In this document: one piece after another, positions 730 to 23,573 of the stretch
How positions within the stretch are numbered: the stretch's first letter is position 1
Layout: every line of letters begins with the position of its first letter
NCBI GenBank assembly: GCA_016703105.1
Contig: JADJCS010000007.1
Span: 143,810 to 207,809 of the forward strand
Reading direction: 5' to 3'
DNA: 64,000 nucleotides
Source of the DNA: Flavobacteriales bacterium
Lineage (GTDB): Bacteria > Bacteroidota > Bacteroidia > Flavobacteriales_F > PHOS-HE28
Translations under genes and position numbers: made by a program
The notes under the pieces: model-generated
Seen by the model: the letters and a program-made list of their open reading frames with translations, nothing else
What the model was told of the DNA's origin: nothing
The model's database searches: none

Positions 730-1155
730 TTGCGCACCATGAAAAAGCTCCTGTTCCTGTTCATCCTCCTGTTCGCAGTGACAGGTGCCTTCCCGCAGAA
801 TGCCCCGCGCCACCACCGCATCATCATGCAGCTCACCAGCGGCGACACGCTGGTGCACAAGAACCTGATGAAACAGTTCAGGAACATGAAGGAAGCCGCT
901 CCCACCATGCAGCTGGAAGTGGTCTGTCATGGCCCGGGCATGGACATGCTGATGAGCGACCGCAGCATCGTGCAGGAAAAAGTGAAGGAGTTCGCCGCGA
1001 AAGGCATCGTGTTCCTGGCCTGTGAGAACACCATCAAGGAGCGCAGCCTCGACCGGACGAAGGTGGTCCCTGATGCGGGGTACGTGAAGGCCGGGATCAT
1101 CCACATCGTGGAGCGGCAGGAGGACGGCTGGAGCTACATCAAAGCGGGGTTCTGA
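730..1155 (+). CDS. DsrE/DsrF-like sulfur-relay family protein with N-terminal signal peptide
   Basis: Hydrophobic signal-like N-terminus (MKKLLFLFILLFAVTGAF). 'VVCHGPG ... FLACENT' arrangement is typical of the DsrE/YchN-like fold. Sits in a sulfur cluster. Confidence 0.55.
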   Translation: MRTMKKLLFLFILLFAVTGAFPQNAPRHHRIIMQLTSGDTLVHKNLMKQFRNMKEAAPTMQLEVVCHGPGMDMLMSDRSIVQEKVKEFAAKGIVFLACENTIKERSLDRTKVVPDAGYVKAGIIHIVERQEDGWSYIKAGF

Positions 1156-1158
1156 CGC

Positions 1159-2586
1159 ATGCGCATCGCATCCTCGCACCGATCGTCCAATGGTCGGTGG
1201 GGCCTGTCCCTTGTCCTATCGGTCGTGTTCCCCCTCTTCGTGAGCGCCCAGCACAGCGAGCAGGACATCCCCAGTGACGACAGCTTGCGAAGCACCGGCA
1301 AGCTGTACGACATCATGAAGCGGGGCGAAGTGGTGGGACGCTTCCGCCAGTACAATATGCTCACCATCAATGATGGAACACCGACGGACTACCATGCGGT
1401 GGCCTTCGGAGGCACGCTCGGCTTCACTTCGCAACGCTGGCATGGCACGCGCTTCAAGCTCAGCGGTGGCTACACCTTCGACTTGGCGACAAGCGACCTC
1501 ACCGTTCTCGACCCCATTACCGGTGCCAGCAACCGCTACGAGATCGGATTGTATGATGTGAACGACCCGCGCCACACCAACGACCTGGCCTACCTACACG
1601 AATTCCAGTTGGACTGGTTGTCGCGCAATGAACGAACACAGGTGGTGATCGGAAAACAAGAATTGAACACGCCCTTCCTCAACCCACAGGATGGGCGCAT
1701 GCACCCCAGCTTGTTCGAAGGCATCTGGGCACAGCACCGCACGACCCACGGCACAGCGCTACAAGGCGGATGGATCTATCGCGTGGCGCCCCGTGGCGCC
1801 AGCGAATGGTACACGGTGGCCGAGAGCATGTCCGTTTTCCCGGTCGGTCGCAACGTATACGGCGAGGGCGCAGAACATGGGGAACACCTCCAGAGCGCGG
1901 GAATTCTAGCGGCAAGCATCAAACAGAAGGTGTACCGCTCGGTGTCGATCACCGCCTGGAATGTTCACACCGAGAACGTCTTCAACAGCGCGTTGATGCA
2001 ACTTGATGCGGGCAAGAAAGAAGCCCGCTGGAGTGCGTCCACCATGGCCATCCGGCAGGACGCCGCGCATTATCGAGGGCACGGCAACGACAGTCTGTTG
2101 TACATGCCAGCGAGCGAAGCCTCTTGGGCGCTCAGTGGACGATTGCGCAATGTGCTCGGCAAATTCCGCTGGCAGCTGAACTACACGCGCATAACCGCGC
2201 ATGGCCGTTACCTGATGCCGCGCGAGTGGGGCCGCGACCCCTTCTTCACGTTCCTGCCGCGCGAGCGTAACGAAGGAGCCGGAGATGTACACGCAGCTTC
2301 ATTGAACCTGATCTGGAGGGCGGACAACGGCTGGCGGATCCAGGTGGATGGCGGTCTGTACCGGATGCCCGAACTCACCGATGCGCGGCTGAACAAGTTC
2401 GTGATGCCATCCTACACGCAGTTCGATGTGAACGCGCAATACCAGTTCAATGGCGGATGGAAGGGCCTTGCTGCGCAAGTACTGGTGCTGGCGAAGCTTC
2501 CACTGCATAGTAACCTCACTGAACGGCAGTCGATCAACAAGGTGGATATGCTGCACGCGGACCTGATCATCAACTACGTGTTCTGA
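1159..2586 (+). CDS. outer-membrane beta-barrel protein (porin-like), hypothetical
   Basis: Signal peptide. Alternating amphipathic beta-strand pattern rich in aromatics. C-terminal '...NYVF' with terminal Phe, typical of OMPs. Confidence 0.5.
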   Translation: MRIASSHRSSNGRWGLSLVLSVVFPLFVSAQHSEQDIPSDDSLRSTGKLYDIMKRGEVVGRFRQYNMLTINDGTPTDYHAVAFGGTLGFTSQRWHGTRFKLSGGYTFDLATSDLTVLDPITGASNRYEIGLYDVNDPRHTNDLAYLHEFQLDWLSRNERTQVVIGKQELNTPFLNPQDGRMHPSLFEGIWAQHRTTHGTALQGGWIYRVAPRGASEWYTVAESMSVFPVGRNVYGEGAEHGEHLQSAGILAASIKQKVYRSVSITAWNVHTENVFNSALMQLDAGKKEARWSASTMAIRQDAAHYRGHGNDSLLYMPASEASWALSGRLRNVLGKFRWQLNYTRITAHGRYLMPREWGRDPFFTFLPRERNEGAGDVHAASLNLIWRADNGWRIQVDGGLYRMPELTDARLNKFVMPSYTQFDVNAQYQFNGGWKGLAAQVLVLAKLPLHSNLTERQSINKVDMLHADLIINYVF

Positions 2587-2672
2587 CACGCGCGTCGCTC
2601 TGTGATGTCAGTCACCGACGGCGCTTGGCGAACTCCGCACCTTTGTACCGCGAAAGCAAAACACCATAGACC

Positions 2673-2972
2673 ATGTTCAAGACATTGTTCGGTATCGGCC
2701 CCAAAGTGGACCTCGGTCAGAAGATCAAGGAAGGAGCGACCATCGTTGACGTGCGCACGGCGGACGAGTTCCGCAGCGGTCATGTGCAGGGAGCGATCAA
2801 CATCCCGTTGGACCGCATCCAGGACGAGTTGAAGAAGCTCGACAAGAGCAAACCGGTGATCACCTGCTGCCGCAGCGGTGCGCGCAGTGGCATGGCCGCC
2901 GATGAATTGAAGCGCCACGGCTTCGACGTCTACAACGGTGGGCCCTGGACCACCTTGAAGAATTCCATGTGA
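2673..2972 (+). CDS. single-domain rhodanese-like sulfurtransferase
   Basis: Rhodanese active-site loop 'ITCCRSGARS'. ~100 aa. Close paralogue of 11432..11740. Confidence 0.85.
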   Translation: MFKTLFGIGPKVDLGQKIKEGATIVDVRTADEFRSGHVQGAINIPLDRIQDELKKLDKSKPVITCCRSGARSGMAADELKRHGFDVYNGGPWTTLKNSM

Positions 2973-3036
2973 GCATCCATGAGGCATTAGAGCCGTGCCA
3001 TTCGCGCGGTTCCCGCCTTTAACGACCTGGTCGATC

Positions 3037-3429
3037 ATGCGCAACCTCTTCGCTCCCGTCCGACTATCCGCACTGCCGCTTCTGCTGATGGCATGCACCA
3101 TGCCCCAACAAGGCACCAACAGCCTGGATGCGGCCGCCTTTGCCGTCCGCCTTGCGGAAAGCGATGCACAGTTGGTGGATGTGCGCACCGCCGCTGAATA
3201 TGCGGATGGTCACATCGCAGGTTCGCGGAACTTGGATCAGACCAGCGGGCAACTGGCACAGAACGTGAACGAACTGGAGAAGTCGAAACCTGTGCTGCTC
3301 TATTGCGCCTCCGGTCGTCGCAGTGCCGCAGCGCGCGCCTACCTTCAGCAGCAGGGCTTCACCGATGTGGTGGATCTGGCCGGTGGGATCGGCGCATGGG
3401 CCGGGGCTGGAAAGCCCATCGAACGCTGA
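3037..3429 (+). CDS. rhodanese-domain lipoprotein
   Basis: Lipoprotein-like signal 'LLLMAC'. Rhodanese catalytic loop 'LYCASGRRS'. Start trimmed from ORF 2995. Confidence 0.8.
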   Translation: MRNLFAPVRLSALPLLLMACTMPQQGTNSLDAAAFAVRLAESDAQLVDVRTAAEYADGHIAGSRNLDQTSGQLAQNVNELEKSKPVLLYCASGRRSAAARAYLQQQGFTDVVDLAGGIGAWAGAGKPIER

Positions 3430-3450
3430 TCGACGGCGTAGCTTTCGGGC

Positions 3451-4944
3451 ATGAGCGTAGGTGCAGCGCAGCTTGGCTTGCGCCAGAACTGGAAACAGTT
3501 CACCTTGCTCGTCATCGTCAACGCCTTCGTGGGCGGCATGGTGGGTATTGAACGCACGGTGCTGCCCATGCTGGCCGAACAGGACTTCGGCATCGCATCG
3601 CGGACGGCCGCGCTCTCCTTCATCGTGGCCTTCGGTATCAGCAAGGCGCTCAGCAACTACTTCGTGGGCAGACTGGCCGGTCGCTTCGGTCGCAAGTCGA
3701 TGTTGGTAACGGGCTGGTTGCTGGCTTTGCCCGTGCCGTTCATGTTGATCTATGCCGATGCGTGGTCGTGGATCGTGGCCGCCAACATCCTGCTGGGTAT
3801 CCATCAAGGCTTCGCATGGAGCAGCACTGTGGTGATGAAGATGGACCTCGTGGGCGAGAAGGACCGCGGCCTCGCCATGGGCTTGAACGAATTCGCCGGA
3901 TACCTCGCGGTGGCGGCGGTGGCCTTCCTCACCGGCTTGCTCGCTGCGGAATACGGCCCGCGGCCGGTTCCGTTCCAGGTGGGCATCGGTATCGCGGTGG
4001 TGGGCCTGCTGCTCACGGTGCTGTGGGTGAAGGATACTGGACACCATGTACATGCTGAAGCAGCGAAGAGCGCGGTGCCGCTGTTGGAAAAGCCCTTCCT
4101 CGATACCTCAGTACGCCATCGCGTGCTCGGAAGCGTGACGCAGGCGGGACTGGTGAACAACCTGAACGACGGCATGCTCTGGGGCCTGCTGCCGGTACTG
4201 CTGGCCGGGCAGGGCTTCAACACGGCGAGCATCGGGGCCATCGCGGCGGTGTATCCAGCCGTGTGGGGTTTGGGGCAATTGCTCACGGGCAAGCTCGCCG
4301 ACCATGTGGACCGCAAGCTGCTGCTGGTGCTGGGCATGGTGCTGCAAGGGATCGCGATCCTCTTCCTTCCCTATGTGGACGCACAAGGCACGTACATCGC
4401 GCTCAGCGCCACGCTCGGCCTAGGCACCGCGCTGGTCTACCCAACTTTCCTGGCCACCATCGCCGCGCACACACATCCGAAGCAACGCGCCGAGAGCCTC
4501 GGCATATTCCGCCTGTGGCGCGATCTGGGCTACGCCATCGGTGCGCTGCTCACCGGCCTCATCGCCGACCGCTTCGGGCTCACCGCCTCCATCCTCTCCA
4601 TCGGGGTCATCACCGTGATATCCGGTCTACTCGTTTGGTTGCGCATGCCGGCGGAACGTCGCTGCCTGGAGCCCATCGACCTGAAAAAGTGGTTGGAAAA
4701 ACCGGATGTGCGTGTAGTGGATGTGCGTTCCCCGGAAGAGTACGCGAGCGGTCACCTGCCGGAGGCCATCAACATACCCGTGGACCGCCTGCTGGAACAG
4801 GCGCGCACCTGGCCAAAGCGGCAGCGCATCGTTACCGTATGCGCCAAAGGCGGTGGCCGCAGCGCACAGGCTGCGCAGTTGTTGCGCGATGTGGGCTTCG
4901 GAAGGACGTGGTGGTTGTGCGGGGGCACATTGGGATGGAGCTGA
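3451..4944 (+). CDS. MFS transporter fused to C-terminal rhodanese domain
   Basis: About 12 predicted TM helices with MFS-type loop 'GRLAGRFGRK'. The C-terminal ~100 aa carry the rhodanese loop 'VTVCAKGGGRSAQAA' with active-site Cys. Confidence 0.8.
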   Translation: MSVGAAQLGLRQNWKQFTLLVIVNAFVGGMVGIERTVLPMLAEQDFGIASRTAALSFIVAFGISKALSNYFVGRLAGRFGRKSMLVTGWLLALPVPFMLIYADAWSWIVAANILLGIHQGFAWSSTVVMKMDLVGEKDRGLAMGLNEFAGYLAVAAVAFLTGLLAAEYGPRPVPFQVGIGIAVVGLLLTVLWVKDTGHHVHAEAAKSAVPLLEKPFLDTSVRHRVLGSVTQAGLVNNLNDGMLWGLLPVLLAGQGFNTASIGAIAAVYPAVWGLGQLLTGKLADHVDRKLLLVLGMVLQGIAILFLPYVDAQGTYIALSATLGLGTALVYPTFLATIAAHTHPKQRAESLGIFRLWRDLGYAIGALLTGLIADRFGLTASILSIGVITVISGLLVWLRMPAERRCLEPIDLKKWLEKPDVRVVDVRSPEEYASGHLPEAINIPVDRLLEQARTWPKRQRIVTVCAKGGGRSAQAAQLLRDVGFGRTWWLCGGTLGWS

Positions 4945-5029
4945 ACGCCGACCTCCAACCATCAGCACGACACGAAAAAGAACGCCCCGGCCGTTGATGA
5001 CCGGGGCGCCTTGAGCATTGACCGTGGGA

Positions 5030-5741: not shown

Positions 5742-6431
5742 TCACTGAACTTGAACGAAGAGCCGGATCGCCTTCGGGTCGAAGCCCAAGCCGTCCACAT
5801 GCCCCATCCAACTGCGCTCCTTGTTGACCAAGTGTACGTGGATGTTCGTGTCGTGGTGCGTGAACACGGCCTTGTGCATGGTGGAAAAGAAGCCGAGCAT
5901 ATCAGCCTCCACGTCCTTCCGTACGAAGGTCTTCCGCCCCTTGTGGGCATCGTCCGGTGAGCGCACCACCGCACCCAGCGGAAGGTCCACCACATGGATC
6001 TCCGCACGCGCGATCCATCCGGACAACTTGAACGCCATCGGCCTGCTCTCGTGGGCGAACCGACTTGTGAGAAAACCATCCAGCTTCGCAAGACCCGTGA
6101 TGCTGTCCGGTAGCGGCACCTCCACCCATTCCGGCACGTTCGCATGCACAAAGAAGGGTGCGGATGCTTCCCGATCGACCTCTACGGCCAGTGCCGTATC
6201 GGAAGTCGCGCGCGACACATAGGCCACACCGTCCCACAGCAGCAACTCTCCTCGAAGGTGATCGAGGGGACCGATACCGAACGCGCCCTGCTTCGCGATC
6301 GTGTCCATGCGCACCAGCCCCGCGAGCTGACCATTGAACATGGTGTTGCGCATGGCGCCGGTAACGAGCACCTGCGCGGAGACTTCCCATGAACACAGGA
6401 GCAGCAACGCAGCGGTGTAAACCTTCCTCAT
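5742..6431 (-). CDS. acetolactate decarboxylase family protein (with predicted signal peptide)
   Basis: 'TM..G...G......gaFGIGp.d.l.GEl...DG..Y' and 'HVHLV...R.wMGHV' blocks match the ALDC fold (AlsD/BudA). Start set at MRKVYTAALLLL, which removes the overlap with the downstream gene. Confidence 0.7.
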   Translation of the reverse strand: MRKVYTAALLLLCSWEVSAQVLVTGAMRNTMFNGQLAGLVRMDTIAKQGAFGIGPLDHLRGELLLWDGVAYVSRATSDTALAVEVDREASAPFFVHANVPEWVEVPLPDSITGLAKLDGFLTSRFAHESRPMAFKLSGWIARAEIHVVDLPLGAVVRSPDDAHKGRKTFVRKDVEADMLGFFSTMHKAVFTHHDTNIHVHLVNKERSWMGHVDGLGFDPKAIRLFVQVQ

Positions 6432-6471
6432 CAGACCATCGGGAATGACCAATACCAGGTTGCCGACACGA

Positions 6472-8052
6472 TCAACGGATGAACCGCGCAGTGAATACGC
6501 GCTGACCGTGGCGCACCTCGACCATGTACGCACCCGGAGCCAGTTGTTGTAGATCCACCTCAAAGGAACGCTCCGCTCCTTTGGCATGCTCGGCCAGAAC
6601 CTGTACCGCGCGACCGACCGTGTCCAACAGGCGGATGCTATACGCTCCGGTCATGTCGGCTCCGATCGAAACGTGCAACACATCCCCCTCGCGGCGCAAC
6701 CGGATATCCACGGCAGCCCCATCCGGAACTAGAATGGATTGCGCCGGATCGACCAGCAGCACACGGAAGATCCGCGAAGAGGCCTCGCTCTGAACGCCGG
6801 TATTGATGAAGAAAATGTTGCCTGCGGTACTCTCGATCCCACCGACCACATGACCCAGCACGATGGTGTCACCCACGAACATTTGCTGGAGCATGATCCC
6901 GCTCGCGTTCTGCGGTGTTCCCGGCCACGGAACGAACTCGGCGCTGGCACCGAGCAATGCGGGCATTGTCCCGACCTGGGCCTCGATCAGGACACCTTGA
7001 CCATCGCGCTGCACCACGCTGATCGTGTTCACGAAGGGCACGTTGATATCGTCCATCAAGGTGCCGTTCCCATCGAAGTAGTAACGGCCGATACCCCCGA
7101 AGAACACGGACCGCATGGCGTTCGAATTAGCATCGTAGAGGCCCACATGGGCACTGTGGTACTGGTTCAGCAGTTGCTCGAACACCGGCACCACCGTGAC
7201 GTTCGTGTCGATGACGTCCAAGGTGTTCAGCCAGGGAATATCATCCACGTACTGGAACACACCCGTGAAGGCGGTGAAGCCCTCCTCTCCGTTCGGGAAG
7301 ATCTGTGGCAGCATGTTGTAGTCCCGACGGTGCAAGTTCATTGTATCCACCAACTCCCAGTAGTCGTTGATCGCCAGTGAGACACCGTCATCATCGATCG
7401 CGAAGCGGCGCACGGCATTGGTGTACTCCTGAATGAAGCCAGGTCCCTGGTTCGGCCCCATCGGATTGTACCGGCCGATGAAACGTTGCCCACCGACCAG
7501 GTAGAAGCGATCGTCTAGCAAGCGCATCTGGCCACCCGTGACCTCCATTCGCGGATCGGTGAGCTGCCGGAAGAAAGGTGCGATGGGTTGGGAGTTGCGA
7601 ATGGCGTCCATCACCCCGGCCAGATCGATCGCGGTGAGGTTGGGATACGTGATGTGGTCGAGCGCGGTGGGCGAATAGCCATAGCCTCCGGCGCAATACA
7701 GTGTGCTATCGCGCTGCTCGAATTCCATGTTGGTGCTCTGCAGCTGTTCCTCCATGGACTGCGGAAGCGCGGAGATCGGTGCGGACCAGACCTGTTGTGT
7801 CACAGGATCCACCACATAGGCACTTAGGTTGTTCCCGGTGGCGAGGAAGGCGAAAGGAGGCTGCCGACGGTGCAGGCCATCGGTGCGCCCGCCGATGATG
7901 AACCACTGCCCATCGTGCTGCCCCCATGCGAAGGATTGGAGCGCAGGCATGCCCGGCACCGTGACCTCCTCAAGCACCAACTCGCGCCCGTCGAAGTACT
8001 GCGCGGACAGGAATAATGGGAGAAATGCGAAGAGCGAGAGAAGTTGCTTCAT
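6472..8052 (-). CDS. secreted protein with T9SS C-terminal sorting domain
   Basis: Signal peptide MKQLLSLFAFLPLFLSAQ. The C-terminal ~80 aa form a beta-rich domain typical of Por/T9SS CTD. Confidence 0.65.
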   Translation of the reverse strand: MKQLLSLFAFLPLFLSAQYFDGRELVLEEVTVPGMPALQSFAWGQHDGQWFIIGGRTDGLHRRQPPFAFLATGNNLSAYVVDPVTQQVWSAPISALPQSMEEQLQSTNMEFEQRDSTLYCAGGYGYSPTALDHITYPNLTAIDLAGVMDAIRNSQPIAPFFRQLTDPRMEVTGGQMRLLDDRFYLVGGQRFIGRYNPMGPNQGPGFIQEYTNAVRRFAIDDDGVSLAINDYWELVDTMNLHRRDYNMLPQIFPNGEEGFTAFTGVFQYVDDIPWLNTLDVIDTNVTVVPVFEQLLNQYHSAHVGLYDANSNAMRSVFFGGIGRYYFDGNGTLMDDINVPFVNTISVVQRDGQGVLIEAQVGTMPALLGASAEFVPWPGTPQNASGIMLQQMFVGDTIVLGHVVGGIESTAGNIFFINTGVQSEASSRIFRVLLVDPAQSILVPDGAAVDIRLRREGDVLHVSIGADMTGAYSIRLLDTVGRAVQVLAEHAKGAERSFEVDLQQLAPGAYMVEVRHGQRVFTARFIR

Positions 8053-8076: not shown

Positions 8077-9279
8077 TCAGCCTTGTGCCCTGCCACGCAG
8101 GATGAAGTTCCAGTACAACCGCGGAAGCACTTCCCGCTTCAACTGGTACATGCTCCAGCGCTCTTTGCTCTGGTCGAAGGGAAATGTCTCCTGGGGTTTG
8201 TTGTCGTAGTCGAACTCCGCGAGCACCAGCTTGCCGTACCCGGTGATCAATGGGCACGAGGTATACCCGTTGTAGTCCGCAGGCAGGGGCTTGTTGGCCA
8301 TGGCCGCGAGCATGTTCGCTACGACGGTGGGCGTTTGCTTGCGGATCGCCGCACCTGTCTTCGAGGTAGGTAAGCCGGCAGCGTCACCGATGCTCCACAC
8401 GTTCGCATGCTTCACATGGCGCAGGCTGTGCTTGTCCACATCCACCCAACCGGCGGCGTTCGCCAATGGGCTCTGCTTGATGAAATCGGGAGCGCTCTGT
8501 GGCGGTGTCACATGGAGCATGTCATAGTCCACCCACTTCACCTCGTCCTTGTTCTTCTCCCCGAAGCCAACGAAACGCGCACGCCTGTTCGGGCCATCGA
8601 TCTCTTCGAGCTTCCAGAAGAAGTTGAGATTGATCCCTCCGCGCTCCACCACCTTCAGCAAGGTCTTCTCATAGCGTGGTATCGCGAAGAGCTTGGTTCC
8701 CCCGCTCCAGTATTGGATGTCCATGTCCTTCAGCACACCTTCCCTGCGCCAATGGTCCGCGGCGAGGTACATGATCTTGTGCGGAGCACCACCGCATTTC
8801 ACGGGCGTGTGCGGGTTGTGGAACACCGCCTTGCCCTTTTTCAAGCCCTTGATGCACTCCCAAGTGTAGGGGGCGTAGGTGAAGCTGTAGTTCGAGCAGA
8901 CGCCGTTCTTCCCGAGGTTCTCCTGCAAGCCCTTCACCCCGTTCCAATCCAACTGGATGCCGGGGCACACGAGCAAGTGATCATAACCGATCGCCTCCCC
9001 ACTCGCCAGCACCACCTCGTTCCGCTCCGGTTGGAACGTGGCCACCTTGTCCTTGATCCACTCCGCTCCCTTTGGAATAAAGTCCTTCTCGTTGCGTTCG
9101 GTGTCCTTGATGTTGAAGGCGCCGCCCCCGACCAAGGTCCAGGCAGGTTGGTAGTAGTGCTTTTCCGAAGGTTCCACGATACCGACCTTCAGCTTGCCGT
9201 TCTTCAATAACAACAAGGCGGCTGCGGAAAGACCAGCGTTCCCGCCACCGATCACGAGGACTTGGAAGTGCTTTGCCAT
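8077..9279 (-). CDS. sqr: sulfide:quinone oxidoreductase (FAD-dependent, type II SQR)
   Basis: N-terminal Rossmann 'VLVIGGGNAG'. Conserved Cys-containing blocks and 'IGDAAG' second dinucleotide motif. Length and overall similarity to SQRDL-type SQR. Start trimmed to MAKHF. Confidence 0.8.
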   Translation of the reverse strand: MAKHFQVLVIGGGNAGLSAAALLLLKNGKLKVGIVEPSEKHYYQPAWTLVGGGAFNIKDTERNEKDFIPKGAEWIKDKVATFQPERNEVVLASGEAIGYDHLLVCPGIQLDWNGVKGLQENLGKNGVCSNYSFTYAPYTWECIKGLKKGKAVFHNPHTPVKCGGAPHKIMYLAADHWRREGVLKDMDIQYWSGGTKLFAIPRYEKTLLKVVERGGINLNFFWKLEEIDGPNRRARFVGFGEKNKDEVKWVDYDMLHVTPPQSAPDFIKQSPLANAAGWVDVDKHSLRHVKHANVWSIGDAAGLPTSKTGAAIRKQTPTVVANMLAAMANKPLPADYNGYTSCPLITGYGKLVLAEFDYDNKPQETFPFDQSKERWSMYQLKREVLPRLYWNFILRGRAQG

Positions 9280-9436
9280 GGCGACCGTGTTAGACGATGC
9301 GAACGTATCGCGACCCCTCACCCCCATCGGTGACGATCCTCACCGAACAGCCATTATCCTGACAAGGATCAGTAAAAGGCCACCGCTCCGCATGGAGTTT
9401 TGTTCCGCCGATGTCAACCATGCGCGGCGAACCACC

Positions 9437-10849
9437 ATGAGGATCGAGCAGATCTATACCGGATGTCTGGCGCACGGCGCCTATTACATCGAGAGCAACG
9501 GCGAAGCGGTCGTGATCGATCCGTTGCGCGAGGTACAACCTTACATCGATCGTGCGACGCGCGACGGTGCGAAGATCAAATACGTGCTGGAGACACACTT
9601 CCACGCGGATTTCGTGAGCGGCCATCTGGACCTGGCGAAGAAGACCGGTGCCACGATCGTGTACGGCCCCACGGCCAAGCCCGGCTTCGAAGCGATGGTA
9701 GCCAACGACGGGCAGGAACTCAACGTGGGCAAGGCGCGCATCCGGGTGATCCATACGCCGGGTCACACATTGGAGAGCACCACCTATTTGCTCATCGATG
9801 AGAGCGGAAAAGAGAAGTGCATCTTCACCGGGGACACGCTCTTCATAGGCGATGTGGGACGCCCGGACCTGGCACAGCATGTGATCGCCGACCTCACCGA
9901 GGACAAGCTGGCGGGTATGCTCTACGACTCGTTGCGGAACAAGATCATGCCTTTGAGCGATGATCTGATCGTGTACCCGAACCACGGTGCCGGCAGCGCG
10001 TGCGGCAAGATGATGAGCAAGGAAACGCAGGATACGCTGGGCCATCAGAAGCGCACGAACTACGCACTACGGCCTGATATGACCAAGGAGGAGTTCAAGA
10101 AAGAACTGCTCACCGGCCTGATGCCGCCTCCGGGCTACTTCCCACAGAACGTACTGATGAACATCAGAGGCTACGAGTCCCTGGACACGGTAATGGAACG
10201 CGCACGTGTGGCGCACTCCCCTGAAGCGTTCGAGGCCGCGGCAGCCGCGCACGAAGCCCTCATCATCGATGCGCGTAGCGCGGGCGACTTCGCAAAGGGC
10301 TTCATTCCCGGTAGCATCAACTTCGGCTTGGATGGCAGCTTTGCGATGTGGGTGGGCGAGATGGTCCCCGACCTCAAGCAGCACATCCTGCTGGTCACCG
10401 ATCCCGGAAAGGAAGAGGAGGCCATGATCCGCCTGAGCCGCATCGGGCACGATGGGCTCGTAGGCTACTTGAAGGGCGGCTTTGAAGCCTGGAAAGCGGC
10501 CGACAAACCCGTGGATACCGTGGCACGGATCACCGCGGAGGACTTCGCCGCGCGGTATGCGCTAAAGCCGTTGGTCTTCGACGTGCGAAAGAAGAGCGAA
10601 TACGAGGCGGAACATGTCGTGGGCGCGGTGAACATCCCGCTCAATGAGTTGAACAACCACCTCGCGGAGGTCCCGAAGGACAAGCCCTTCATCCTGCACT
10701 GCGCCGGAGGCTACCGCAGCATGATCGCTGCGTCGATGCTGAAAGCACGTGGCTGGGAGAACTTCCTGGACGTAGCCGATGGATTCGCGGGGATCAAGAA
10801 CACCAGTGTACCACGCACGGCCTTCGTACAACCGACCACTCTGCTGTAA
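9437..10849 (+). CDS. persulfide dioxygenase (MBL-fold) fused to two rhodanese domains (CstB-like)
   Basis: MBL motif 'HFHADFVSGH'. Two C-terminal rhodanese domains, the second with catalytic Cys 'LHCAGGYRS'. Divergent from sqr. Start at ATG 9437 (MRIEQIYTG). Confidence 0.85.
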   Translation: MRIEQIYTGCLAHGAYYIESNGEAVVIDPLREVQPYIDRATRDGAKIKYVLETHFHADFVSGHLDLAKKTGATIVYGPTAKPGFEAMVANDGQELNVGKARIRVIHTPGHTLESTTYLLIDESGKEKCIFTGDTLFIGDVGRPDLAQHVIADLTEDKLAGMLYDSLRNKIMPLSDDLIVYPNHGAGSACGKMMSKETQDTLGHQKRTNYALRPDMTKEEFKKELLTGLMPPPGYFPQNVLMNIRGYESLDTVMERARVAHSPEAFEAAAAAHEALIIDARSAGDFAKGFIPGSINFGLDGSFAMWVGEMVPDLKQHILLVTDPGKEEEAMIRLSRIGHDGLVGYLKGGFEAWKAADKPVDTVARITAEDFAARYALKPLVFDVRKKSEYEAEHVVGAVNIPLNELNNHLAEVPKDKPFILHCAGGYRSMIAASMLKARGWENFLDVADGFAGIKNTSVPRTAFVQPTTLL

Positions 10850-10994: not shown

Positions 10995-11198
10995 ATGAAG
11001 CCGAACATGGGTACCGCCGATCGCATCGTTCGCATCCTCGTCGCTGCGGTCATCGCCATCTTGTACTTCACCGGAACCGTGAGCGGTACGCTCGGGATCG
11101 TGCTTCTCGTGCTCGCAGGGGTCTTCGTGGCCACCAGCGTAGTGAGCTTCTGCCCGCTTTATGCCCCGTTCGGCATGAGCACATGCCCGAAGAAATGA
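10995..11198 (+). CDS. DUF2892 (YgaP-like) small membrane protein
   Basis: 67 aa, two TM segments, C-terminal 'CPLYAPFGMSTCP' as in DUF2892 proteins that accompany rhodaneses. Confidence 0.6.
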   Translation: MKPNMGTADRIVRILVAAVIAILYFTGTVSGTLGIVLLVLAGVFVATSVVSFCPLYAPFGMSTCPKK

Positions 11199-11428
11199 AG
11201 CGCACGTTGCTACTTACCGGTGTCGGCATCGTTCTCGGTGCGGTCGCTGGCTGGTTCTACTGGAGCCAGTTCGGCTGCACCACGGGCTGTTCCATCACCT
11301 CCAGCCCGGTGAACAGCACTTTGTACGGCGCGTTCATGGGGGGCTTGTTCCTCAACTCGTTCACGAAGCCGGCCAAGAGCCCTTCACCACCAGAGGGGAA
11401 CAACTGCGGCACGAATTCCACCCCCTGA
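11195..11428 (+). CDS. small membrane protein with CxxGC motif (DUF6132-like)
   Basis: ATGA start/stop overlap with the upstream gene. One TM helix followed by 'GCTTGCSITSSPVNSTLYGA'. Confidence 0.45.
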   Translation: MKRTLLLTGVGIVLGAVAGWFYWSQFGCTTGCSITSSPVNSTLYGAFMGGLFLNSFTKPAKSPSPPEGNNCGTNSTP

Positions 11429-11431
11429 CCG

Positions 11432-11740
11432 ATGCTACGCTCGCTCTTCGGGATCGGTCCCAAGGTGGACTTGAAGCAGGTGCTTGCTCAAGGCGCTGTC
11501 ATCCTGGACGTACGTACACCCGAGGAATTCGCGCAGGGGCATGTGCAGGGCTCCATCAATATACCGCTGGACGTCCTTACCCAGAACCTGCACCAATTGG
11601 ACAAGGACAAACCGGTGATCACGTGTTGTCGCAGCGGCATGCGGAGCGGGCAGGCGGTACATGTGCTACAGGACCACGGTTTCACCGTACACAATGGAGG
11701 GCCTTGGACCGAGGTCGATCAACTGGTCAAGCAACGATGA
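11432..11740 (+). CDS. single-domain rhodanese-like sulfurtransferase (paralogue of 2673..2972)
   Basis: 'ITCCRSGMRS' loop. Very similar along its whole length to the 2673 gene (MxxxLFGIGPKVDL..., ...NGGPWT...). Confidence 0.85.
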   Translation: MLRSLFGIGPKVDLKQVLAQGAVILDVRTPEEFAQGHVQGSINIPLDVLTQNLHQLDKDKPVITCCRSGMRSGQAVHVLQDHGFTVHNGGPWTEVDQLVKQR

Positions 11741-11985
11741 GAGCACGCCTATTGACCGACTGGCATGCGATGCGCTGGATGCGGCTCGCCTTCGCCATTG
11801 TCTTCCTGTTCGCCGGCATCGCCCAACACGAGCCGGTGGCCTACGCTGCCGCCGCCTTCTTTGGGTTCCAGGCACTTTTTAACGTAGGCTGTTGCGGTGC
11901 CGCCTGCGCGCCACCGCGCAACAAGGTCGAGCAAGGCACGAGCCGCCCTGCGACAGCGGACGTCAGTTATGAAGAGATCAAATGA
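11737..11985 (+). CDS. small hypothetical membrane protein
   Basis: ATGA overlap with the rhodanese stop; hydrophobic core; Cys-rich 'GCCGAACA'. Weak call. Confidence 0.35.
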   Translation: MRARLLTDWHAMRWMRLAFAIVFLFAGIAQHEPVAYAAAAFFGFQALFNVGCCGAACAPPRNKVEQGTSRPATADVSYEEIK

Positions 11986-12296
11986 CCATGGAGACCAAGA
12001 GCCCTTCCTTTAGCACGCTCATCAACGGTGAAAAGCCGGTGGTGGTGGATTTCTACGCCGAATGGTGCGGCCCATGCAAAATGATGAAGCCGATCCTGGA
12101 TCAGTTCAAAGGGATGGTGGGCGATCGCGCCACCGTGATCAAGGTGGATGTGGACAAGAACCCGGCAGCGGCGCAGGCCTATGGCGTGCGGGGCGTGCCC
12201 ACCCTGGCCATCTTCAAAAAGGGGGAGATCGTCTGGCGGAAGTCCGGCGTGGTGAGCGCCGCCCAACTAGAGGGCGTCCTTCAGCCCTTTCTCTGA
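11982..12296 (+). CDS. trxA: thioredoxin
   Basis: WCGPC active site; 104 aa; Trx fold spacing. Confidence 0.9.
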   Translation: MTMETKSPSFSTLINGEKPVVVDFYAEWCGPCKMMKPILDQFKGMVGDRATVIKVDVDKNPAAAQAYGVRGVPTLAIFKKGEIVWRKSGVVSAAQLEGVLQPFL

Positions 12297-12911
12297 GGCC
12301 GGTTTCCAGTCGGCGGAAAGGTGTACTTCGAGGGAGCCCCGCGAAACGGTGACACGTCCCACTTGCTGAAGTTGATGCAACAGCCGGGTGATCACCTCAC
12401 GCGGTGAGTTGAGTTCTTGCGCGATATCCTGGTGGGTGACCTTCAGGATGTGGTTGCCGGTGGCCTGTACGCGCTTCACCAGGTAGTTCCAGAGCTGTTC
12501 ATCGAGCTTTCGGAAGGCCACCACCTCGATGGTCTCCAACAGTTCGCCGAAGCGCTGGGCCTGCGTGTCGCTCACATACCGTCGCCATTCTGGGTATACC
12601 ATCCATTCCTCCATGTACCGCGCGGGTATCATCAGCAACTCGGCATCCTCCTCCACCACGGCCATCACACTGCTGATGCGTTTCGAAACACAACATGTGA
12701 GGGACATGGCACAGGATTCGCCCGGCAGAATGTGGTAGAGGAAGCGCTCCCGCCCTTCGGGGTCCTGGGCCAGGATGCGCAGGCTGCCCTTCTGTACGAT
12801 CGGGATGTGCGTGATGGGGTCACCGGCGCGCATCAACTCGGCACCCGCCGGTAGGGAACGATGCACCACCACGCTCTCGAACTCGCGCTGCAACTTGGGG
12901 TCGGTGAACAT
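12267..12911 (-). CDS. Crp/Fnr-family transcriptional regulator
   Basis: N-terminal cNMP-binding-like beta-roll, C-terminal HTH 'ITHQDIAQELNSPREVITRLL'. Confidence 0.8.
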   Translation of the reverse strand: MFTDPKLQREFESVVVHRSLPAGAELMRAGDPITHIPIVQKGSLRILAQDPEGRERFLYHILPGESCAMSLTCCVSKRISSVMAVVEEDAELLMIPARYMEEWMVYPEWRRYVSDTQAQRFGELLETIEVVAFRKLDEQLWNYLVKRVQATGNHILKVTHQDIAQELNSPREVITRLLHQLQQVGRVTVSRGSLEVHLSADWKPASEKGLKDAL

Positions 12912-19044: not shown

Positions 19045-19229
19045 GCTGGTGCTTGTTCGACCAATGGACGGAACAAAAGGTATTGCGTTGCCTCCGTGAA
19101 GCTTGCGGCGAAGGCGAGCAGCATTCCGGAGGATCCTCAAGGGCCCGACCGCGCCGACACATAGCGGCAATAGCGGGAATACCATCTCGCAATACAGCCT
19201 TGGACGAAGGCGGCGTGGACTGAAGGTGG

Positions 19230-20540
19230 TTACGGCAGTTGTGCTGCACGCGTCGCCGTGGGCACCACCCCGCCCACGCTGGTGAGGATCGGATCCCTGT
19301 CGTTGAACGAGCCTGCGTACTTCACGGTGCCGTCCAAATTCACGTCGTTCGGGTTGTACACGCTCGGCAGCGTGCCGGTGGGCACCCCACCGCCAATGGC
19401 CACCAACAGCGGATCGCGGTCGTTACCGGCACCGGCGTACTTGATGGTGCCGTTCCCATTGGTATCACCTGGCCACAGCACGCGGTAGTTGTATAGGGTG
19501 TCCCCCACTTTGCGGGCGTTCACGCCCCAGGTGTTCGTAGCGGCAGCGGTGAAATCCACGCCAGTGTGCGCCGACGGTGTTGCCACAGGAGCGCTCAAGG
19601 CCACCGGCGTAGCCGTCATACACCCCAGATGGTTGCGGTGCCGCACGGCCACGTAGTAATTGCCGGGCGCTACGTTGAACGCGATGGCCGAAGTTCCGTC
19701 CGCTCCGTACACGGATCCCATTTGGCTGACCAACCCCTGCCGGGTGGCCACCACCACCGTTGGATCCATCGCAGAGCGAAGTTCCACGCGGACCCAATCC
19801 ACTGGTCCATCCAAGTTGTTGAAGCTCCACCACGCCGTCGGTGCTACCTCGCCACCACCACCGCCCGCCTGTGCATACCCAAGAGCCGTATAGGGCTCCA
19901 GTGCCGGCAGCAGGTTCTGCAGGCGCAGGTTCGCCGGCATATACCCATTGGAATACGGCCCACCGAGCAGGAGGCGCACCCATAGAAAAGCAGTGGTAGC
20001 CAGCGGGCTGGTCTCTACCATCACATCGTCGAACCACGCGGTTGACGTGCCGTTCGCAGAGACTTCGAGCACGATGCAGAACTCCGCGTTCGGGTCGGAG
20101 GAATGATCCACCGGAGGCAGCACATGCGGGGGCACGGCAAAGGGTCTCCAACCTGTATTGCCTCCAATGGTGTAGTAAGCGTTCGAGCCGTAGGCGCTTC
20201 CATCGTTCAAGTGGACCCAGTCCAGCCATACGCGTTGGTTCACATCCGTATCGCTGGCCTTCATCCAGCTGGAGTAGCGGTAGGCCAGGGCGGAGTTGAA
20301 CGGGATGGGATGATACACGCGGCGCACTGGGTTCAGCGGGTCCACCGCGAGCGCCAGAGCGTTCGCTCCGCTGGCCCCGGGCCCCAATGCGATCGGCTGG
20401 CCATTGTCCTGCACCCAACCGTTCAGGCCGTTGGGCCCTTCAAAGTCGAAATGGTATTGCTGCGCCAGCAAAGGTGCTCCGCACAACACGGGCAACAGGC
20501 CAACGCACCACATCCCAAGGTAGCAGGCGGTGATCTTCAT
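19230..20540 (-). CDS. secreted hypothetical protein with C-terminal dockerin-like Ca-binding repeats
   Basis: Signal peptide (start trimmed to MKITACYLG). Two C-terminal 'D.N.DGT.KYAG..NDRDP' repeats. Confidence 0.5.
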   Translation of the reverse strand: MKITACYLGMWCVGLLPVLCGAPLLAQQYHFDFEGPNGLNGWVQDNGQPIALGPGASGANALALAVDPLNPVRRVYHPIPFNSALAYRYSSWMKASDTDVNQRVWLDWVHLNDGSAYGSNAYYTIGGNTGWRPFAVPPHVLPPVDHSSDPNAEFCIVLEVSANGTSTAWFDDVMVETSPLATTAFLWVRLLLGGPYSNGYMPANLRLQNLLPALEPYTALGYAQAGGGGGEVAPTAWWSFNNLDGPVDWVRVELRSAMDPTVVVATRQGLVSQMGSVYGADGTSAIAFNVAPGNYYVAVRHRNHLGCMTATPVALSAPVATPSAHTGVDFTAAATNTWGVNARKVGDTLYNYRVLWPGDTNGNGTIKYAGAGNDRDPLLVAIGGGVPTGTLPSVYNPNDVNLDGTVKYAGSFNDRDPILTSVGGVVPTATRAAQLP

Positions 20541-20701
20541 CGGTTCGGTGGTTCGGGTAGAAGACGGCGGGCCGCACCAGGCGTTGCCGCGAAGATCCAC
20601 TTTCACGGCGGCACCACCATCCGGACCGGTATATACGGTCCATAACTCTGGGCGCATGCGGTGGCGCGAAGCTTCTATCTTGGTGGGGCAGCGCGCACCC
20701 C

Positions 20702-23124: not shown

Positions 23125-23129
23125 GCGGG

Positions 23130-23573
23130 TCAGGTCTTCAGCGCGCCCTTGGCCAAGCGATCACGAACGGAATTGCTCAGCATCACAGGAGGCTGCTTAT
23201 CAGAACCTGTCATATCAAGGCATCCATCGAAGCGATCAGGAAAAGGAATGATCTGCGCGTGAGCGCCATTCTCGGGGTCTTCTGCGGGATGGGGATCGTG
23301 GCAAACGCACAAGGCCAATGAGCGCACATGGGCGGTGGCCAAGCGGCACAAGCAGTACTTACCGGGATCCGTTGTCGCCTTCTTGGCCCGTTCCAGCGTG
23401 GTCAATCGCTCTACATCCACAGAAAGCCCACTTTCCCCCTTGTCTTTGCGCAACCGGAATGCCAGCGGTGTCGCCGTTCCATCCTCGCGGAAGTAATTGT
23501 CTCCTTCAGCGTACACCCGGCGCAGCAACATGTCAGCGTCAGCGATCGCCTGCCGTGGTATCCTACTTTCCAT
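23130..23573 (-). CDS. hypothetical protein Z, RM-embedded cargo
   Basis: ORF 23130..23630; start ambiguous, with ATGs at 23573 and 23531. Stop is 6 nt before the hsdM start. No recognisable family. Confidence 0.4.
   Translation of the reverse strand: MESRIPRQAIADADMLLRRVYAEGDNYFREDGTATPLAFRLRKDKGESGLSVDVERLTTLERAKKATTDPGKYCLCRLATAHVRSLALCVCHDPHPAEDPENGAHAQIIPFPDRFDGCLDMTGSDKQPPVMLSNSVRDRLAKGALKT

Follow-up and report, generated by a model that had tools for sequence, protein, structure and literature searches.

Heterotrophic bacteria convert toxic sulfide to sulfite and thiosulfate by means of a sulfide:quinone reductase (SQR), a persulfide dioxygenase (PDO) and rhodaneses. The cst and BigR operons encode SQR, persulfide dioxygenase/CstB and rhodaneses together with a TauE/SafE exporter. 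To our knowledge, the passage of sulfite and thiosulfate across the membrane is known for TauE-type candidates only. In the YeeE/YeeD (TsuA/TsuB) system, a sulfur-compound transporter is combined with a small cytoplasmic single-Cys sulfurtransferase, which binds on the cytoplasmic side and is either the product of a neighboring gene or a C-terminal fusion (PMC11073785). SoxT1A, Rhd442 and DsrE3C provide a precedent for the order transporter, rhodanese, DsrE (PMC11582611).

Here we describe an MFS permease fused to a rhodanese domain, encoded in a 64-kb stretch of Flavobacteriales DNA (the window). By analogy of function only, the fusion is a variant of the transporter-plus-sulfurtransferase theme of YeeE-YeeD, and YeeE-like genes share islands with the MFS family. 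The two systems differ in fold and partner (YeeE/YedE and a TusA-like protein versus MFS and rhodanese), in the natural linker (at least 40 residues versus about 6 between the MFS core and the rhodanese domain in the AlphaFold2 model) and in setting (an assimilatory importer versus a stress or detoxification context). As in the cst and BigR operons, SQR-like proteins, PDO with rhodanese domains, rhodaneses, thioredoxin and ArsR- or CsoR-like regulators are encoded around the MFS genes. The transporter described for those operons is TauE/SafE or YeeE-like, whereas the MFS protein is not homologous to TauE, and no description of an MFS transporter in operons of this type was found in the open-access literature. 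Our tentative reading assigns the fusion protein to the membrane step in sulfane-sulfur detoxification, most probably as an exporter of sulfite or thiosulfate whose tethered rhodanese handles sulfur at the cytoplasmic mouth; substrate, transport direction, domain function and the cytoplasmic position of the domain are what we infer.

Architecture of the fusion protein

The fusion gene is a single ORF that starts with ATG and encodes 497 residues without stop or frameshift (Table 1). A domain search, the check proposed in an earlier note on this DNA, detects both MFS_1 (1.7e-48, 165.7 bits, cut-off 33.4) and Rhodanese (PF00581; residues 410-497, 8.6e-18, 65.1 bits, cut-off 22.2) in Pfam. The AlphaFold2 model (pLDDT 86, pTM 0.80) comprises 12 long helices within residues 14-398, followed by an α/β domain at residues 405-497. 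ORF, Pfam domains and model thus bear out the description given in that note, an MFS permease of about 12 TM helices fused to a rhodanese. The databases contain one 497-residue protein that is 99% identical and, besides it, over 100 full-length homologs with the fusion. These independent sequences rule out a frameshift or assembly artefact, including the interruption between the two parts that the note had named as the finding that would overturn it. The architecture had also been called uncommon, which does not hold: nearly all of the best 120 database matches are fused, and all are named merely "MFS transporter".

The MFS core consists of two six-helix bundles (residues 14-46, 50-79, 81-100, 105-134, 139-168 and 173-192; 224-253, 258-285, 288-308, 312-339, 346-375 and 377-398) joined by a central cytoplasmic loop with loop helices at residues 197-222. 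Motif-A-like cytoplasmic loops are found between TM2 and TM3 (GRLAGRFGRK) and between TM8 and TM9 (GKLADHVDRK). Judging from these loops and the 12 helices, the rhodanese domain would be cytoplasmic. Several polar or charged residues in the predicted helices are invariant (E147, N236/N237/N239/D240, R354/R357/D358), and the presence of Arg354 and Arg357 together with Asp/Glu would fit an anion/H+ mechanism.

A Foldseek search against the PDB gave matches confined to the MFS half, to the generic transporters VMAT/VAChT, OxlT (TM 0.86) and NorA; the nearest solved structures are the drug and amine antiporters LtaA, VMAT and NorA. Among the best 25 of 61 NCBIfam matches, no named MFS subfamily reached its cut-off (top score 68.8 bits, cut-offs 131-900). 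Neither Sulf_transp nor TusA was matched by Pfam in the 497-residue protein. DHA antiporters carry the motif GxxxGPxxGG in TM5. By eye, this motif was not seen in residues 139-168, and a classical DHA antiporter was discarded; the result is no argument on the direction of transport.

The rhodanese domain and its active-site loop

The closest PDB sequences to the rhodanese domain are 1yt8, 3tp9 and BpPRF (5ve3). Cys464 (codon 4840-4842), in the motif VCAKGGGRS at residues 463-471, occupies the position of the catalytic Cys in alignments with PDB rhodaneses and is conserved in 113 of 113 homologs. The assignment of the catalytic Cys to this motif in the earlier note is thus upheld, and an inactive Cys-less variant, its second possible refutation, is ruled out. 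The C, GGG, R and S positions of the loop are conserved in all but one of the 113 homologs, the exception having GGE.

The loop CAKGGGR is one residue longer than in the aligned PDB rhodaneses (vcakgggrs versus vcr-aggrs), and the HMMER alignments to 3tp9 and 5ve3 require a one-residue gap in the target. It is therefore a 7-residue CX5R loop, in contrast to the 6-residue loops of the neighboring rhodaneses in the window and to the 6-residue CX4[R/T/S] loop of thiosulfate sulfurtransferase-type rhodaneses (GlpE/PspE/RhdA-like). The NCBIfam GlpE and PspE models score far under their cut-offs. This loop, unlike that of proven thiosulfate sulfurtransferases, counts against our preferred reading. 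An extra loop residue has been linked to lost thiosulfate selectivity, as Forlani 2003 is cited in PMC10135228.

Two other rhodanese proteins invite comparison. E. coli YgaP likewise has a catalytic rhodanese tethered at the cytoplasmic face of the inner membrane, and a YgaP-like_TM protein is encoded in the same island as the fusion, but YgaP is no transporter, and its membrane part is just a pair of C-terminal TM helices. Its active-site loop is of the 6-residue type, and its structures match the rhodanese domain weakly (PDB sequence search, E ~2e-3). E. coli SelU/MnmH has a similar loop (CARGGQRS versus CAKGGGRS), but the fusion lacks a P-loop/tRNA-modifying domain, and selenium genes are absent from its surroundings; residues 415-444 alone match the NCBIfam SelU/MnmH model, through a generic N-terminal DVR..H segment (40.9 bits, cut-off 241).

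The domain contains two further conserved cysteines, Cys405 and Cys490. Both are present in 111 sequences and neither in 9, so that gain and loss of the two are coupled; the few sequences that seem to deviate are artefacts of pattern matching or truncation. Such behavior is expected of a bridge-forming pair, and the probable cytoplasmic location makes a structural disulfide unlikely. The domain might thus be a thiol switch (Cys464 with Cys405/Cys490) that lies off the substrate path and opens or closes the permease when modified by sulfane sulfur, through di-, tri- or tetrasulfide bridges, or by As(III). ArsR-type persulfide sensors act via sulfur bridges between two Cys (PMC11582611), the very short tether to TM12 in the model would suit mechanical coupling, and a switch would account for the presence of the fusion in both sulfur and arsenic operons. 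On the other hand, many members of the MFS family have no rhodanese domain and some partner rhodaneses have no Cys pair, so such a switch is not essential to transport, and both the DsrE gene next to it and a catalytic-type loop that is fully conserved point to sulfur transfer rather than to sensing alone. We consider a purely regulatory role improbable.

The probable operon and the sulfur island in the window

The fusion gene probably closes an operon that begins with the DsrE/DsrF-like gene and continues with an OprD-like porin and two rhodaneses, with successive gaps of 3, 86, about 22-64 and 21 nt, the last of them separating the lipoprotein-type rhodanese from the MFS gene. The two stand-alone rhodaneses noted earlier in front of the fusion are thus both present. 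Downstream, a GC-rich hairpin with a T-run is the terminator of the convergent peroxiredoxin gene and probably also marks the end of this operon. A scan for sigma-70 promoters found none, a pattern that is not informative for Bacteroidota promoters. Homologs of the DsrE/DsrF-like protein adjoin the MFS gene at three other loci (L060, L071, L072).

Genes for SQR, PDO with two rhodanese domains and thioredoxin are located 3-7 kb from the fusion gene. The SQR-like flavoprotein matches the type III SQR model of NCBIfam with 3.1e-65 and 220 bits, under the cut-off of that selenoprotein-specific model. The PDO-type protein is 58% identical to a 471-residue cluster that adjoins MFS relatives. The following five-gene block is colinear with a block adjoining an 89%-identical ortholog at locus L085, and the Crp/Fnr-family regulator at the island border is 84% identical to the one at the same place in L085. 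PDO is not directly upstream of the MFS gene in the window, where this position is taken by the rhodaneses, the porin and the DsrE-like gene; it lies 4.5 kb downstream, with four minus-strand genes between.

Table 1. Features of the fusion gene, its probable operon and the adjoining sulfur island, in window coordinates.
Feature	Position	Strand	Basis
Secreted DsrE/DsrF-like protein, signal peptide	730..1155	+	Pfam DsrE 3.8e-4, under cut-off
OprD-like outer-membrane porin	1159..2586	+	Pfam OprD, 29.4 bits (cut-off 25)
Stand-alone cytoplasmic rhodanese, 99 aa, 6-residue loop CRSGAR(S)	2673..2972	+	ORF, Pfam
Lipoprotein-type rhodanese, lipobox LLLMAC, loop CASGRR(S)	3037..3429 (alternative start 2995)	+	ORF, Pfam
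MFS-rhodanese fusion gene	3451..4944	+	Intact ORF, Pfam MFS_1 and Rhodanese, AlphaFold2 model, 99%-identical homolog (P0001)
MFS permease core, residues 1-400, 12 TM helices	3451..4650	+	AlphaFold2 helices, conservation, Foldseek
Rhodanese domain, residues 405-497, probably cytoplasmic	4663..4941	+	Pfam (410-497), AlphaFold2 α/β fold
Cys405 codon, start of rhodanese domain	4663..4665	+	Co-varies with Cys490
Active-site loop C464-A-K-G-G-G-R-S471, 7-residue CX5R(S)	4840..4863	+	Homolog alignment, PDB alignment
Cys490 codon, WLCGGT motif	4918..4920	+	Glu (LEGG) there in relatives without the Cys pair
GC-rich hairpin and T-run, terminator of convergent peroxiredoxin gene	4981..5010	-	Sequence
SQR-like flavoprotein	8077..9327	-	NCBIfam type III SQR, Pfam Pyr_redox_2
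PDO-type MBL-fold protein with two rhodanese domains, 471 aa from ATG 9434	9434..10849	+	Pfam Lactamase_B, Rhodanese (two)
Five genes: YgaP-like TM, small Cys-motif membrane ORF, rhodanese (102 aa), second Cys-motif ORF, thioredoxin	10995..12296	+	Pfam
Crp/Fnr-family regulator, island border	12267..12911	-	Pfam cNMP_binding, HTH_Crp_2

Relatives and their gene neighborhoods

We provisionally define a PDO-linked MFS family by at least 47% identity over a 400-residue core and the invariant motifs VNNLNDGM, FRLWRDLGY and GLNEFAGY; the window protein has both the identity and the three motifs. Members share 47-60% identity and range from Bacteroidota to Proteobacteria, Actinobacteria, Deinococcus and haloarchaeal plasmids. 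A first impression from the GTDB scan, that the family is restricted to Bacteroidota, was overturned by a plasmid search. The family is uncharacterised: searches of the open-access literature for MFS-rhodanese fusions, for PDO with MFS and for rhodaneses in ars operons returned no publication on it.

Rhodaneses of the CxxGGxRS subtype are either fused to the MFS protein or encoded by a separate gene of 101-116 residues that overlaps or abuts the end of the MFS gene. The split form is found for example at loci L038, L049, L065, L066, L068, L070, L091 and L092 and on an Azotobacter plasmid, and the split clade keeps the gene order crp-MFS-rhd-dsrE. The best 120 matches of a profile of this subtype are solely stand-alone or MFS-linked rhodaneses. 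Taken together, fused and split forms define a rhodanese subtype whose loop has 7 residues and whose Cys pair co-varies.

In the bacterial loci examined, the MFS gene usually comes right after the dioxygenase gene. Of 10 annotated plasmid loci, 8 have an MBL-fold/PDO gene directly upstream of the MFS gene; they represent Gamma-, Alpha- and Betaproteobacteria, Actinobacteria, Deinococcus and Bacteroidota. The arrangement is also seen in 12 of 80 GTDB loci, and this adjacency recurs across at least five phyla. PDO-adjacent members are known for example from Azotobacter salinestris, Janthinobacterium and Haliscomenobacter. Other neighbors include DsrE, ArsR-rhodanese and CsoR/CstR-like regulators, TauE, YeeE-like halves, thioredoxin and SQR. 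A Hymenobacter plasmid carries a porin-DsrE-MFS module in which a "DsrE family protein" is encoded directly upstream of the MFS gene. This cross-phylum family is habitually found downstream of PDO, and we read the permease as a step of sulfane-sulfur detoxification. The general idea of the earlier note, that sulfurtransferase chemistry is coupled to the transport of a sulfur compound, fits both these PDO neighborhoods and the fusion and fission with the rhodanese.

Some observations weigh against this reading. About half of the 80 GTDB loci have no marker gene within 8 kb, a Burkholderia plasmid locus has an unrelated context, and several loci also encode TauE or YeeE-like transporters, so that the MFS protein is not always the sole candidate carrier. 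The loci without markers and the unrelated plasmid locus, together with the solved structures LtaA, VMAT and NorA, could instead point to a generic drug or metabolite efflux pump, with an incidental rhodanese and coincidental sulfur and arsenic neighbors. This is extremely unlikely given the recurrence of the PDO-MFS adjacency across phyla, the dedicated rhodanese subtype that is fused or split, and core residues that are invariant at 50-60% identity across phyla.

Association with arsenic operons

Of the nine closest orthologs (76-90% identity), five terminate arsR-arsM-(arsC)-acr3(-dinB/chrA) operons with no sulfur gene nearby, and three of the five overlap the preceding gene by 4 nt. The ArsM and Acr3 proteins at these loci exceed the NCBIfam cut-offs, and the ArsR proteins encoded upstream carry a CVC/CIC motif, which we take to bind As(III). 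A pure sulfite/thiosulfate exporter leaves these operons unexplained. An alternative is that the CX5R domain acts as an arsenate reductase of the Cdc25/Acr2 or ArsC kind or binds As(III) at a three-Cys site, and that the MFS half extrudes arsenite, methylarsenite or arsenic-sulfur species, analogous to fused efflux-pump/ArsC proteins. The three invariant Cys and the nearby thioredoxin gene would be in line with this, presumably resembling the Cys relay of thioredoxin-coupled ArsC. The loop also conforms to C-X5-R-(S/T), a signature shared by phosphatases and arsenate reductases, and, as in Cdc25/Acr2, is a CX5R loop on a rhodanese fold (PMC10135228).

Several findings argue against an arsenic enzyme. 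Val463 precedes Cys464, whereas Cdc25/Acr2 proteins have a His at this position, in HCX5R (PMC10135228), and there is no detectable sequence kinship, Cdc25/Acr2 being absent from the 37 PDB sequence matches (E<=0.01). The ars operons concerned already have arsC and acr3. The window contains no ars gene anywhere in its 64 kb, and association with PDO and DsrE, not with ars genes, characterises both the wider family and the split clade. The family-wide context is sulfur, not arsenic. The arsenic MFS pumps ArsJ and ArsK are absent from the best 25 of the 61 NCBIfam matches (weakest E 6e-8; the presence of these models in the library is unconfirmed), and the MFS models among these 25 are all under their cut-offs, so that the MFS half is not readily recognised as ArsJ or ArsK. 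Arsenate reduction or arsenic extrusion thus appears a doubtful function for the fusion.

Both contexts might be reconciled if the 7-residue-loop rhodanese and the MFS permease were specialised for thio-oxyanions whose central atom is larger than sulfur, such as monothioarsenate or possibly seleno- or thiophosphate-like compounds. In that case the domain would transfer sulfane sulfur onto arsenite or remove it from thioarsenate, with the permease as carrier of the product; this would explain why one ortholog group (76-90% identity) occurs in sulfide-oxidation operons or at the end of ars operons. Sulfur-dependent arsenic detoxification has long been proposed (Couture 2012, as cited in PMC6620896 and PMC4220137), and an SQR-arsenic link in Synechocystis is attributed to Nagy 2014, as cited in PMC4307280. 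We regard such a thio-oxyanion module as very unlikely; if it were real, it would represent the first enzyme and transporter for sulfur-dependent arsenic detoxification. Found also in arsenic operons and metal-resistance islands, the rhodanese subtype gives access to the overlap of sulfide and metalloid stress, which is poorly understood.

Proposed role and direction of transport

According to our preferred reading, sulfane-sulfur detoxification with efflux, the protein would be a 12-helix permease of the inner membrane, with cytoplasmic N- and C-termini and a catalytic-type rhodanese attached to the last helix. SQR and PDO would convert sulfide via persulfide to sulfite, and the permease would expel the resulting oxyanion, most likely sulfite and/or thiosulfate. 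The tethered rhodanese may form thiosulfate from sulfite and the Cys464 persulfide, or may pass sulfane sulfur to or from DsrE-type carriers. Since a secreted DsrE-like protein, an OprD-like porin and a lipoprotein rhodanese are also products of the probable operon, the pathway appears to span the whole cell envelope. The MFS family is thus a concrete and testable candidate for the transport of sulfide-detoxification products.

The same arrangement could be used in the opposite direction. A sulfane-sulfur compound such as thiosulfate or polysulfide, once it had entered via the porin and been handled by the periplasmic DsrE-like protein and the lipoprotein rhodanese, would be imported, and the tethered rhodanese would trap it as a Cys persulfide for DsrE and PDO, as in YeeE-YeeD or SoxT1A-Rhd442-DsrE3C. 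Both of these precedents are importers, which counts against efflux: YeeD is the obligatory cytoplasmic partner of YeeE and is naturally fused to it in Corynebacterium pollutisoli (PMC11073785), and SoxT1A passes imported sulfur to the rhodanese and then to DsrE3C (PMC11582611), an order identical to the MFS-rhd-dsrE order of the split clade. The outer-membrane porin and the exported sulfurtransferases of the window operon also fit uptake, as does the very short tether of the AlphaFold2 model, which would hold the acceptor at the transporter exit. However, the associated regulators are of stress type (ArsR-rhodanese, CsoR/CstR-like and As(III)-type ArsR), and the genes are located in plasmid resistance islands and in ars operons, whose known membrane proteins are efflux systems. 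This stress-type regulation and the resistance-island location argue for detoxification and efflux over assimilation. YeeE-like proteins, a known importer type, co-occur with the MFS protein in 8 loci, and bringing more sulfane sulfur into a detoxification cassette would be counter-intuitive. Uptake and capture is thus possible but rather unlikely.

Other rhodaneses with a CX5R loop

A HMMER search with the rhodanese domain alone placed mainly proteins with 4-16 rhodanese repeats at the top and recovered little else but a set of stand-alone CX5R rhodaneses. One CX5R rhodanese (P0187), read by eye, has a C-terminal hydrophobic tail that resembles a YgaP-type TM segment.

The MFS-rhodanese protein and its operon

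The MFS-rhodanese gene is one open frame of 497 codons starting with ATG, which bears out the single uninterrupted fusion described in the earlier note. Pfam places MFS_1 on residues 1 to ~400 (1.7e-48) and a rhodanese domain on residues 410-497 (8.6e-18), both far over the curated cut-offs. The motif VCAKGGGRS quoted in that note was found, with Cys464 encoded by nt 4840-4842, and two rhodanese genes do lie ahead of the ORF. The product is a bona fide MFS permease joined to a bona fide Cys-containing rhodanese; it reached no named MFS subfamily. A sequencing artefact was rejected as the source of the fusion, because a Flavobacteriales MAG encodes a 497-aa protein 99% identical to it and more than 100 further full-length fused homologs exist.

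An AlphaFold2 model with 16 homologs as input (mean pLDDT 86, pTM 0.80) comprises twelve long helices plus two short ones in the central loop (residues 14-398) and an α/β domain (residues 405-497), with only ~6 residues between the last helix and the first rhodanese strand. MFS motif-A-like loops follow TM2 (GRLAGRFGRK) and TM8 (GKLADHVDRK). From the twelve helices and these two loops, both termini, and thus the rhodanese domain, are predicted to be cytoplasmic. Arg354 and Arg357 are invariant and, with E147, D240 and D358, lie in predicted helices; these residues would suit an anion/H+ mechanism.

Positions of features in the window
Position	Strand	Feature	Remarks
730-1155		Secreted DsrE-like protein	probable operon 730-4944
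1159-2586		OprD-like porin	same operon
2673-2972		Cytoplasmic rhodanese	same operon
3037-3429		Lipoprotein rhodanese	same operon; start possibly 2995; signal LLLMAC
3451-4944	+	MFS-rhodanese	probably last in operon
4981-5010		Hairpin	terminator of convergent peroxiredoxin gene
5742-6587	-	Secreted alpha-acetolactate-decarboxylase-like protein	AAL_decarboxy, 8.5e-19 (Pfam)
6472-8052	-	Type IX C-terminal sorting domain protein
11195-11428	+	Small predicted membrane ORF	Cys motif GCTTGC
11737-11985	+	Small predicted membrane ORF	Cys motif GCCGAAC
16588-19185	-	Type IX C-terminal sorting domain protein
19230-20657		ORF	no Pfam match, E<=1e-3
21475-28461	-	Type I restriction-modification system	small unannotated ORFs between genes
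21475-23124	-	HsdM-like methylase
24865-26070	-	Specificity subunit
26278-28461	-	Helicase/restriction subunit
31688-33244	+	Type IX C-terminal sorting domain protein
34698-36266		ORF	no Pfam match, E<=1e-5
41844-42965		ORF	no Pfam match, E<=1e-5
43457-45163		ORF	no Pfam match, E<=1e-5
45063-46085		ORF	no Pfam match, E<=1e-5
46241-47512		ORF	no Pfam match, E<=1e-5
55536-57731		ORF	no Pfam match, E<=1e-5
62163-63992	-	GldN, part of GldM	window end

The 8 kb past the operon include an SQR-like flavoprotein (type III sulfide:quinone reductase model, 220 bits), a protein joining a persulfide dioxygenase (PDO) to two rhodaneses (PDO-Rhd-Rhd), a YgaP-like TM protein, a further rhodanese, a thioredoxin and a Crp regulator. 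The two small Cys-motif ORFs, which have no Pfam name, flank a 102-aa rhodanese between the YgaP-like gene and the thioredoxin; they recur at the same positions in the related locus L085 (43% and 46% identity). Outside this region the window carries genes ordinary for a Bacteroidota chromosome (fumarase, RF, RecX, type I restriction, TonB receptors, EngA, GldM/GldN), and the sorting-domain proteins together with GldN/GldM confirm that this chromosome is that of a gliding member. The seven ORFs lacking a Pfam match (340-731 aa) have gene-like codon bias.

Distribution of the fusion

The architecture had been called uncommon, a view that does not hold. A search with the protein gave at least 8000 candidates. 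Among the 120 best matches, almost every one is ~500 aa with MFS and rhodanese, and none of these 120 bears a functional name. Scanning one genome per species revealed relatives at 595 loci or more. The best 80 of these, mostly from Bacteroidota with a few from Acidobacteriota, Myxococcota and one deltaproteobacterium, include 12 in-frame fusions and 10 split forms, in which an MFS gene (409-444 aa) is followed by a separate rhodanese gene (101-110 aa) at spacings from a 47-nt overlap to a 22-nt gap (six pairs measured); the remainder encode a 400-aa MFS without a CX5R-type rhodanese. By tblastn, 122 plasmids matched the MFS core at 47-60% identity; their hosts include Proteobacteria, Actinobacteria, Deinococcus and Halobacterium, and a Bacteroidota-only core was rejected on these matches. 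The architecture is common but uncharacterised, and no paper on the family was found in the literature searched.

Gene neighbourhoods and likely function

At the 80 loci we grouped the flanking ORFs into clusters and used Pfam to name these; marker genes were tabulated with the MFS cores arranged in neighbour-joining order. A Crp-type regulator lies ~65 nt upstream of the MFS in 24 of the 80, and small rhodaneses are recurrent neighbours. Also found were DsrE (11/80), ArsR-HTH fused to rhodanese (9/80), a PDO-like rhodanese-MBL protein directly upstream (9/80), a 471-aa PDO-Rhd-Rhd protein (8/80), TauE (7/80) and two YeeE-like half-proteins (7/80 and 6/80). The order crp-MFS-rhd-dsrE is conserved in the split clade. 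The alpha-acetolactate-decarboxylase-like protein is another recurring neighbour, without obvious tie to sulfur chemistry: homologs stand directly after the MFS in one locus (L036, 34% identity) and after the MFS-rhodanese pair in another (L092, 1801-2493).

The pattern is clearest on annotated plasmids, where an MBL-fold/PDO gene immediately precedes the MFS in 8 of 10 loci inspected. Gene orders are ArsR-DsrE-MBL-MFS-Rhd (Azotobacter), ArsR then DsrE-MBL-MFS (Janthinobacterium), ArsR then MBL-MFS-...-DsrE (Methylocystis), ArsR then MBL-MFS (Bradyrhizobium), MBL-MFS-ArsR (Deinococcus) and MBL-MFS (Haliscomenobacter). Two Arthrobacter plasmids carry a metal-sensitive (CsoR/CstR-like) regulator, TauE, rhodaneses, thioredoxin, a ~470-aa protein in the CstB position (annotated MBL-fold on one, rhodanese-like on the other) and the MFS. 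A Hymenobacter plasmid has cytochrome c, OprD porin and DsrE before the MFS; the context on a Burkholderia plasmid is unrelated (1/10). Many PDO-MFS cassettes lie in Hg, Cu or Cr resistance islands, which suggests that mobile metal(loid) resistance islands regularly include persulfide handling. The islands at five plasmid loci (L094, L096-L099) carry MerT/MerTP, GDCCVxC proteins, copper proteins, P-type ATPases, chromate transporters, a SoxB gene and class I SAM methyltransferases.

The strongest signal family-wide is the MFS as habitual partner of PDO and sulfur-carrier proteins, under stress-type regulators and often with no other transporter in the cassette. PDO produces its sulfite in the cytoplasm. 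Our leading and simplest, still tentative, reading is that the MFS may remove the oxyanion product of the PDO pathway, sulfite and/or thiosulfate, with the tethered or adjacent rhodanese acting at its cytoplasmic mouth, where it would either join sulfite with a persulfide into thiosulfate or pass sulfane sulfur to and from DsrE. The reverse direction, import and capture by analogy with YeeE-YeeD and SoxT1A-Rhd442-DsrE3C, would suit the porin and exported sulfurtransferases of the window operon but agrees less readily with stress regulation and with resistance islands, and seems rather unlikely. YeeE-YeeD is functionally the most similar arrangement and is likewise fused in some species, whereas its transporter and sulfurtransferase folds are both unrelated. 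That the MFS is a generic efflux pump is highly improbable. The family is a testable candidate for the transport step still missing from heterotrophic sulfide oxidation.

Arsenic operons and the rhodanese subtype

The closest relatives (76-90% identity) are all fused and come from Flavobacteriales MAGs, and for most of them the setting is not a sulfur operon. In four (L003, L081, L086, L088) the gene is last in arsR-arsM-(arsC-like)-acr3(-dinB-chrA)-MFS-Rhd, overlapping the preceding gene by 4 nt in the latter three. ArsM, Acr3 and the chromate transporter score over NCBIfam cut-offs, and the ArsR proteins have CVC/CIC motifs. L085 has ars genes upstream and, downstream, the window's YgaP_TM-Rhd-Trx-Crp block, then ArsR, PDO-Rhd and YeeE genes. 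One protein, with little change, therefore serves in arsenic as well as in sulfur settings. The overlapping gene in L086 (5883-7004) is of the chromate-efflux family. In two Cyclobacteriaceae genomes (L027, L029), members of that family also occur at ~3 kb from MFS genes that are unfused. Published work offers a frame for this: in Synechocystis an ArsR-like repressor controls an SQR operon that is classed among arsenic resistance systems (PMC4307280), monothioarsenate is similar to thiosulfate, and SelD/SelU-like proteins have been put forward as makers of thioarsenate (PMC6620896; PMC4220137).

The C-x-K-G-G-G-R-S loop is essentially invariant in 113 aligned homologs. Counted from Cys to Arg it has seven residues, against six in the three surrounding window rhodaneses (CRSGAR, CASGRR, CAGGYR), and HMMER has to open a one-residue gap to align it with solved rhodaneses (vcakgggrs against vcr-aggrs). 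In the split-form partners the loop is the same (CGKGGGRS); it reads CNLGGSRS in the Azotobacter plasmid partner and CARGGQRS in E. coli SelU. According to a review (PMC10135228), active loops of the rhodanese fold come in two types, Cx4R/T and Cx5R, and Cdc25 has the second. The MFS-fused rhodanese has neither the six-residue loop of thiosulfate sulfurtransferases nor the HCX5R of Cdc25/Acr2, and the protein falls outside SelU by its domains. An arsenic-specific role would account for the CX5R(S) loop and for the gene's place in ars operons, but leaves the family-wide sulfur context unexplained and sits poorly with the lack of His before Cys and of any ars genes detected within the 64-kb window; we consider it unlikely.

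Cys405, at the domain start, and Cys490, in WLCGGT, are invariant in fused proteins. Over fused and stand-alone members both are present in 111 cases and both absent in 9, most of which have Glu at the second position (as in LEGG); apparent exceptions are pattern-matching artefacts or truncated sequences. This co-variation suggests a functional pair. The domain might then be a thiol-switch gate of the permease, which would also account for the dual sulfur/arsenic context; this leaves members without a rhodanese domain unexplained and appears quite improbable.

The family singles out an unexplained rhodanese subtype bridging sulfur and arsenic operons. The best 120 matches of a subtype profile search are only stand-alone rhodaneses (~105 aa) or MFS-linked ones. 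Two of three stand-alone members on long contigs lie directly after an MFS gene, and the third adjoins a cysteine desulfurase. One CX5R-type rhodanese of 166 aa, P0187, has a C-terminal hydrophobic tail that, read by eye, resembles a YgaP-like TM segment; if it is one, the subtype would be membrane-anchored in a second way too.
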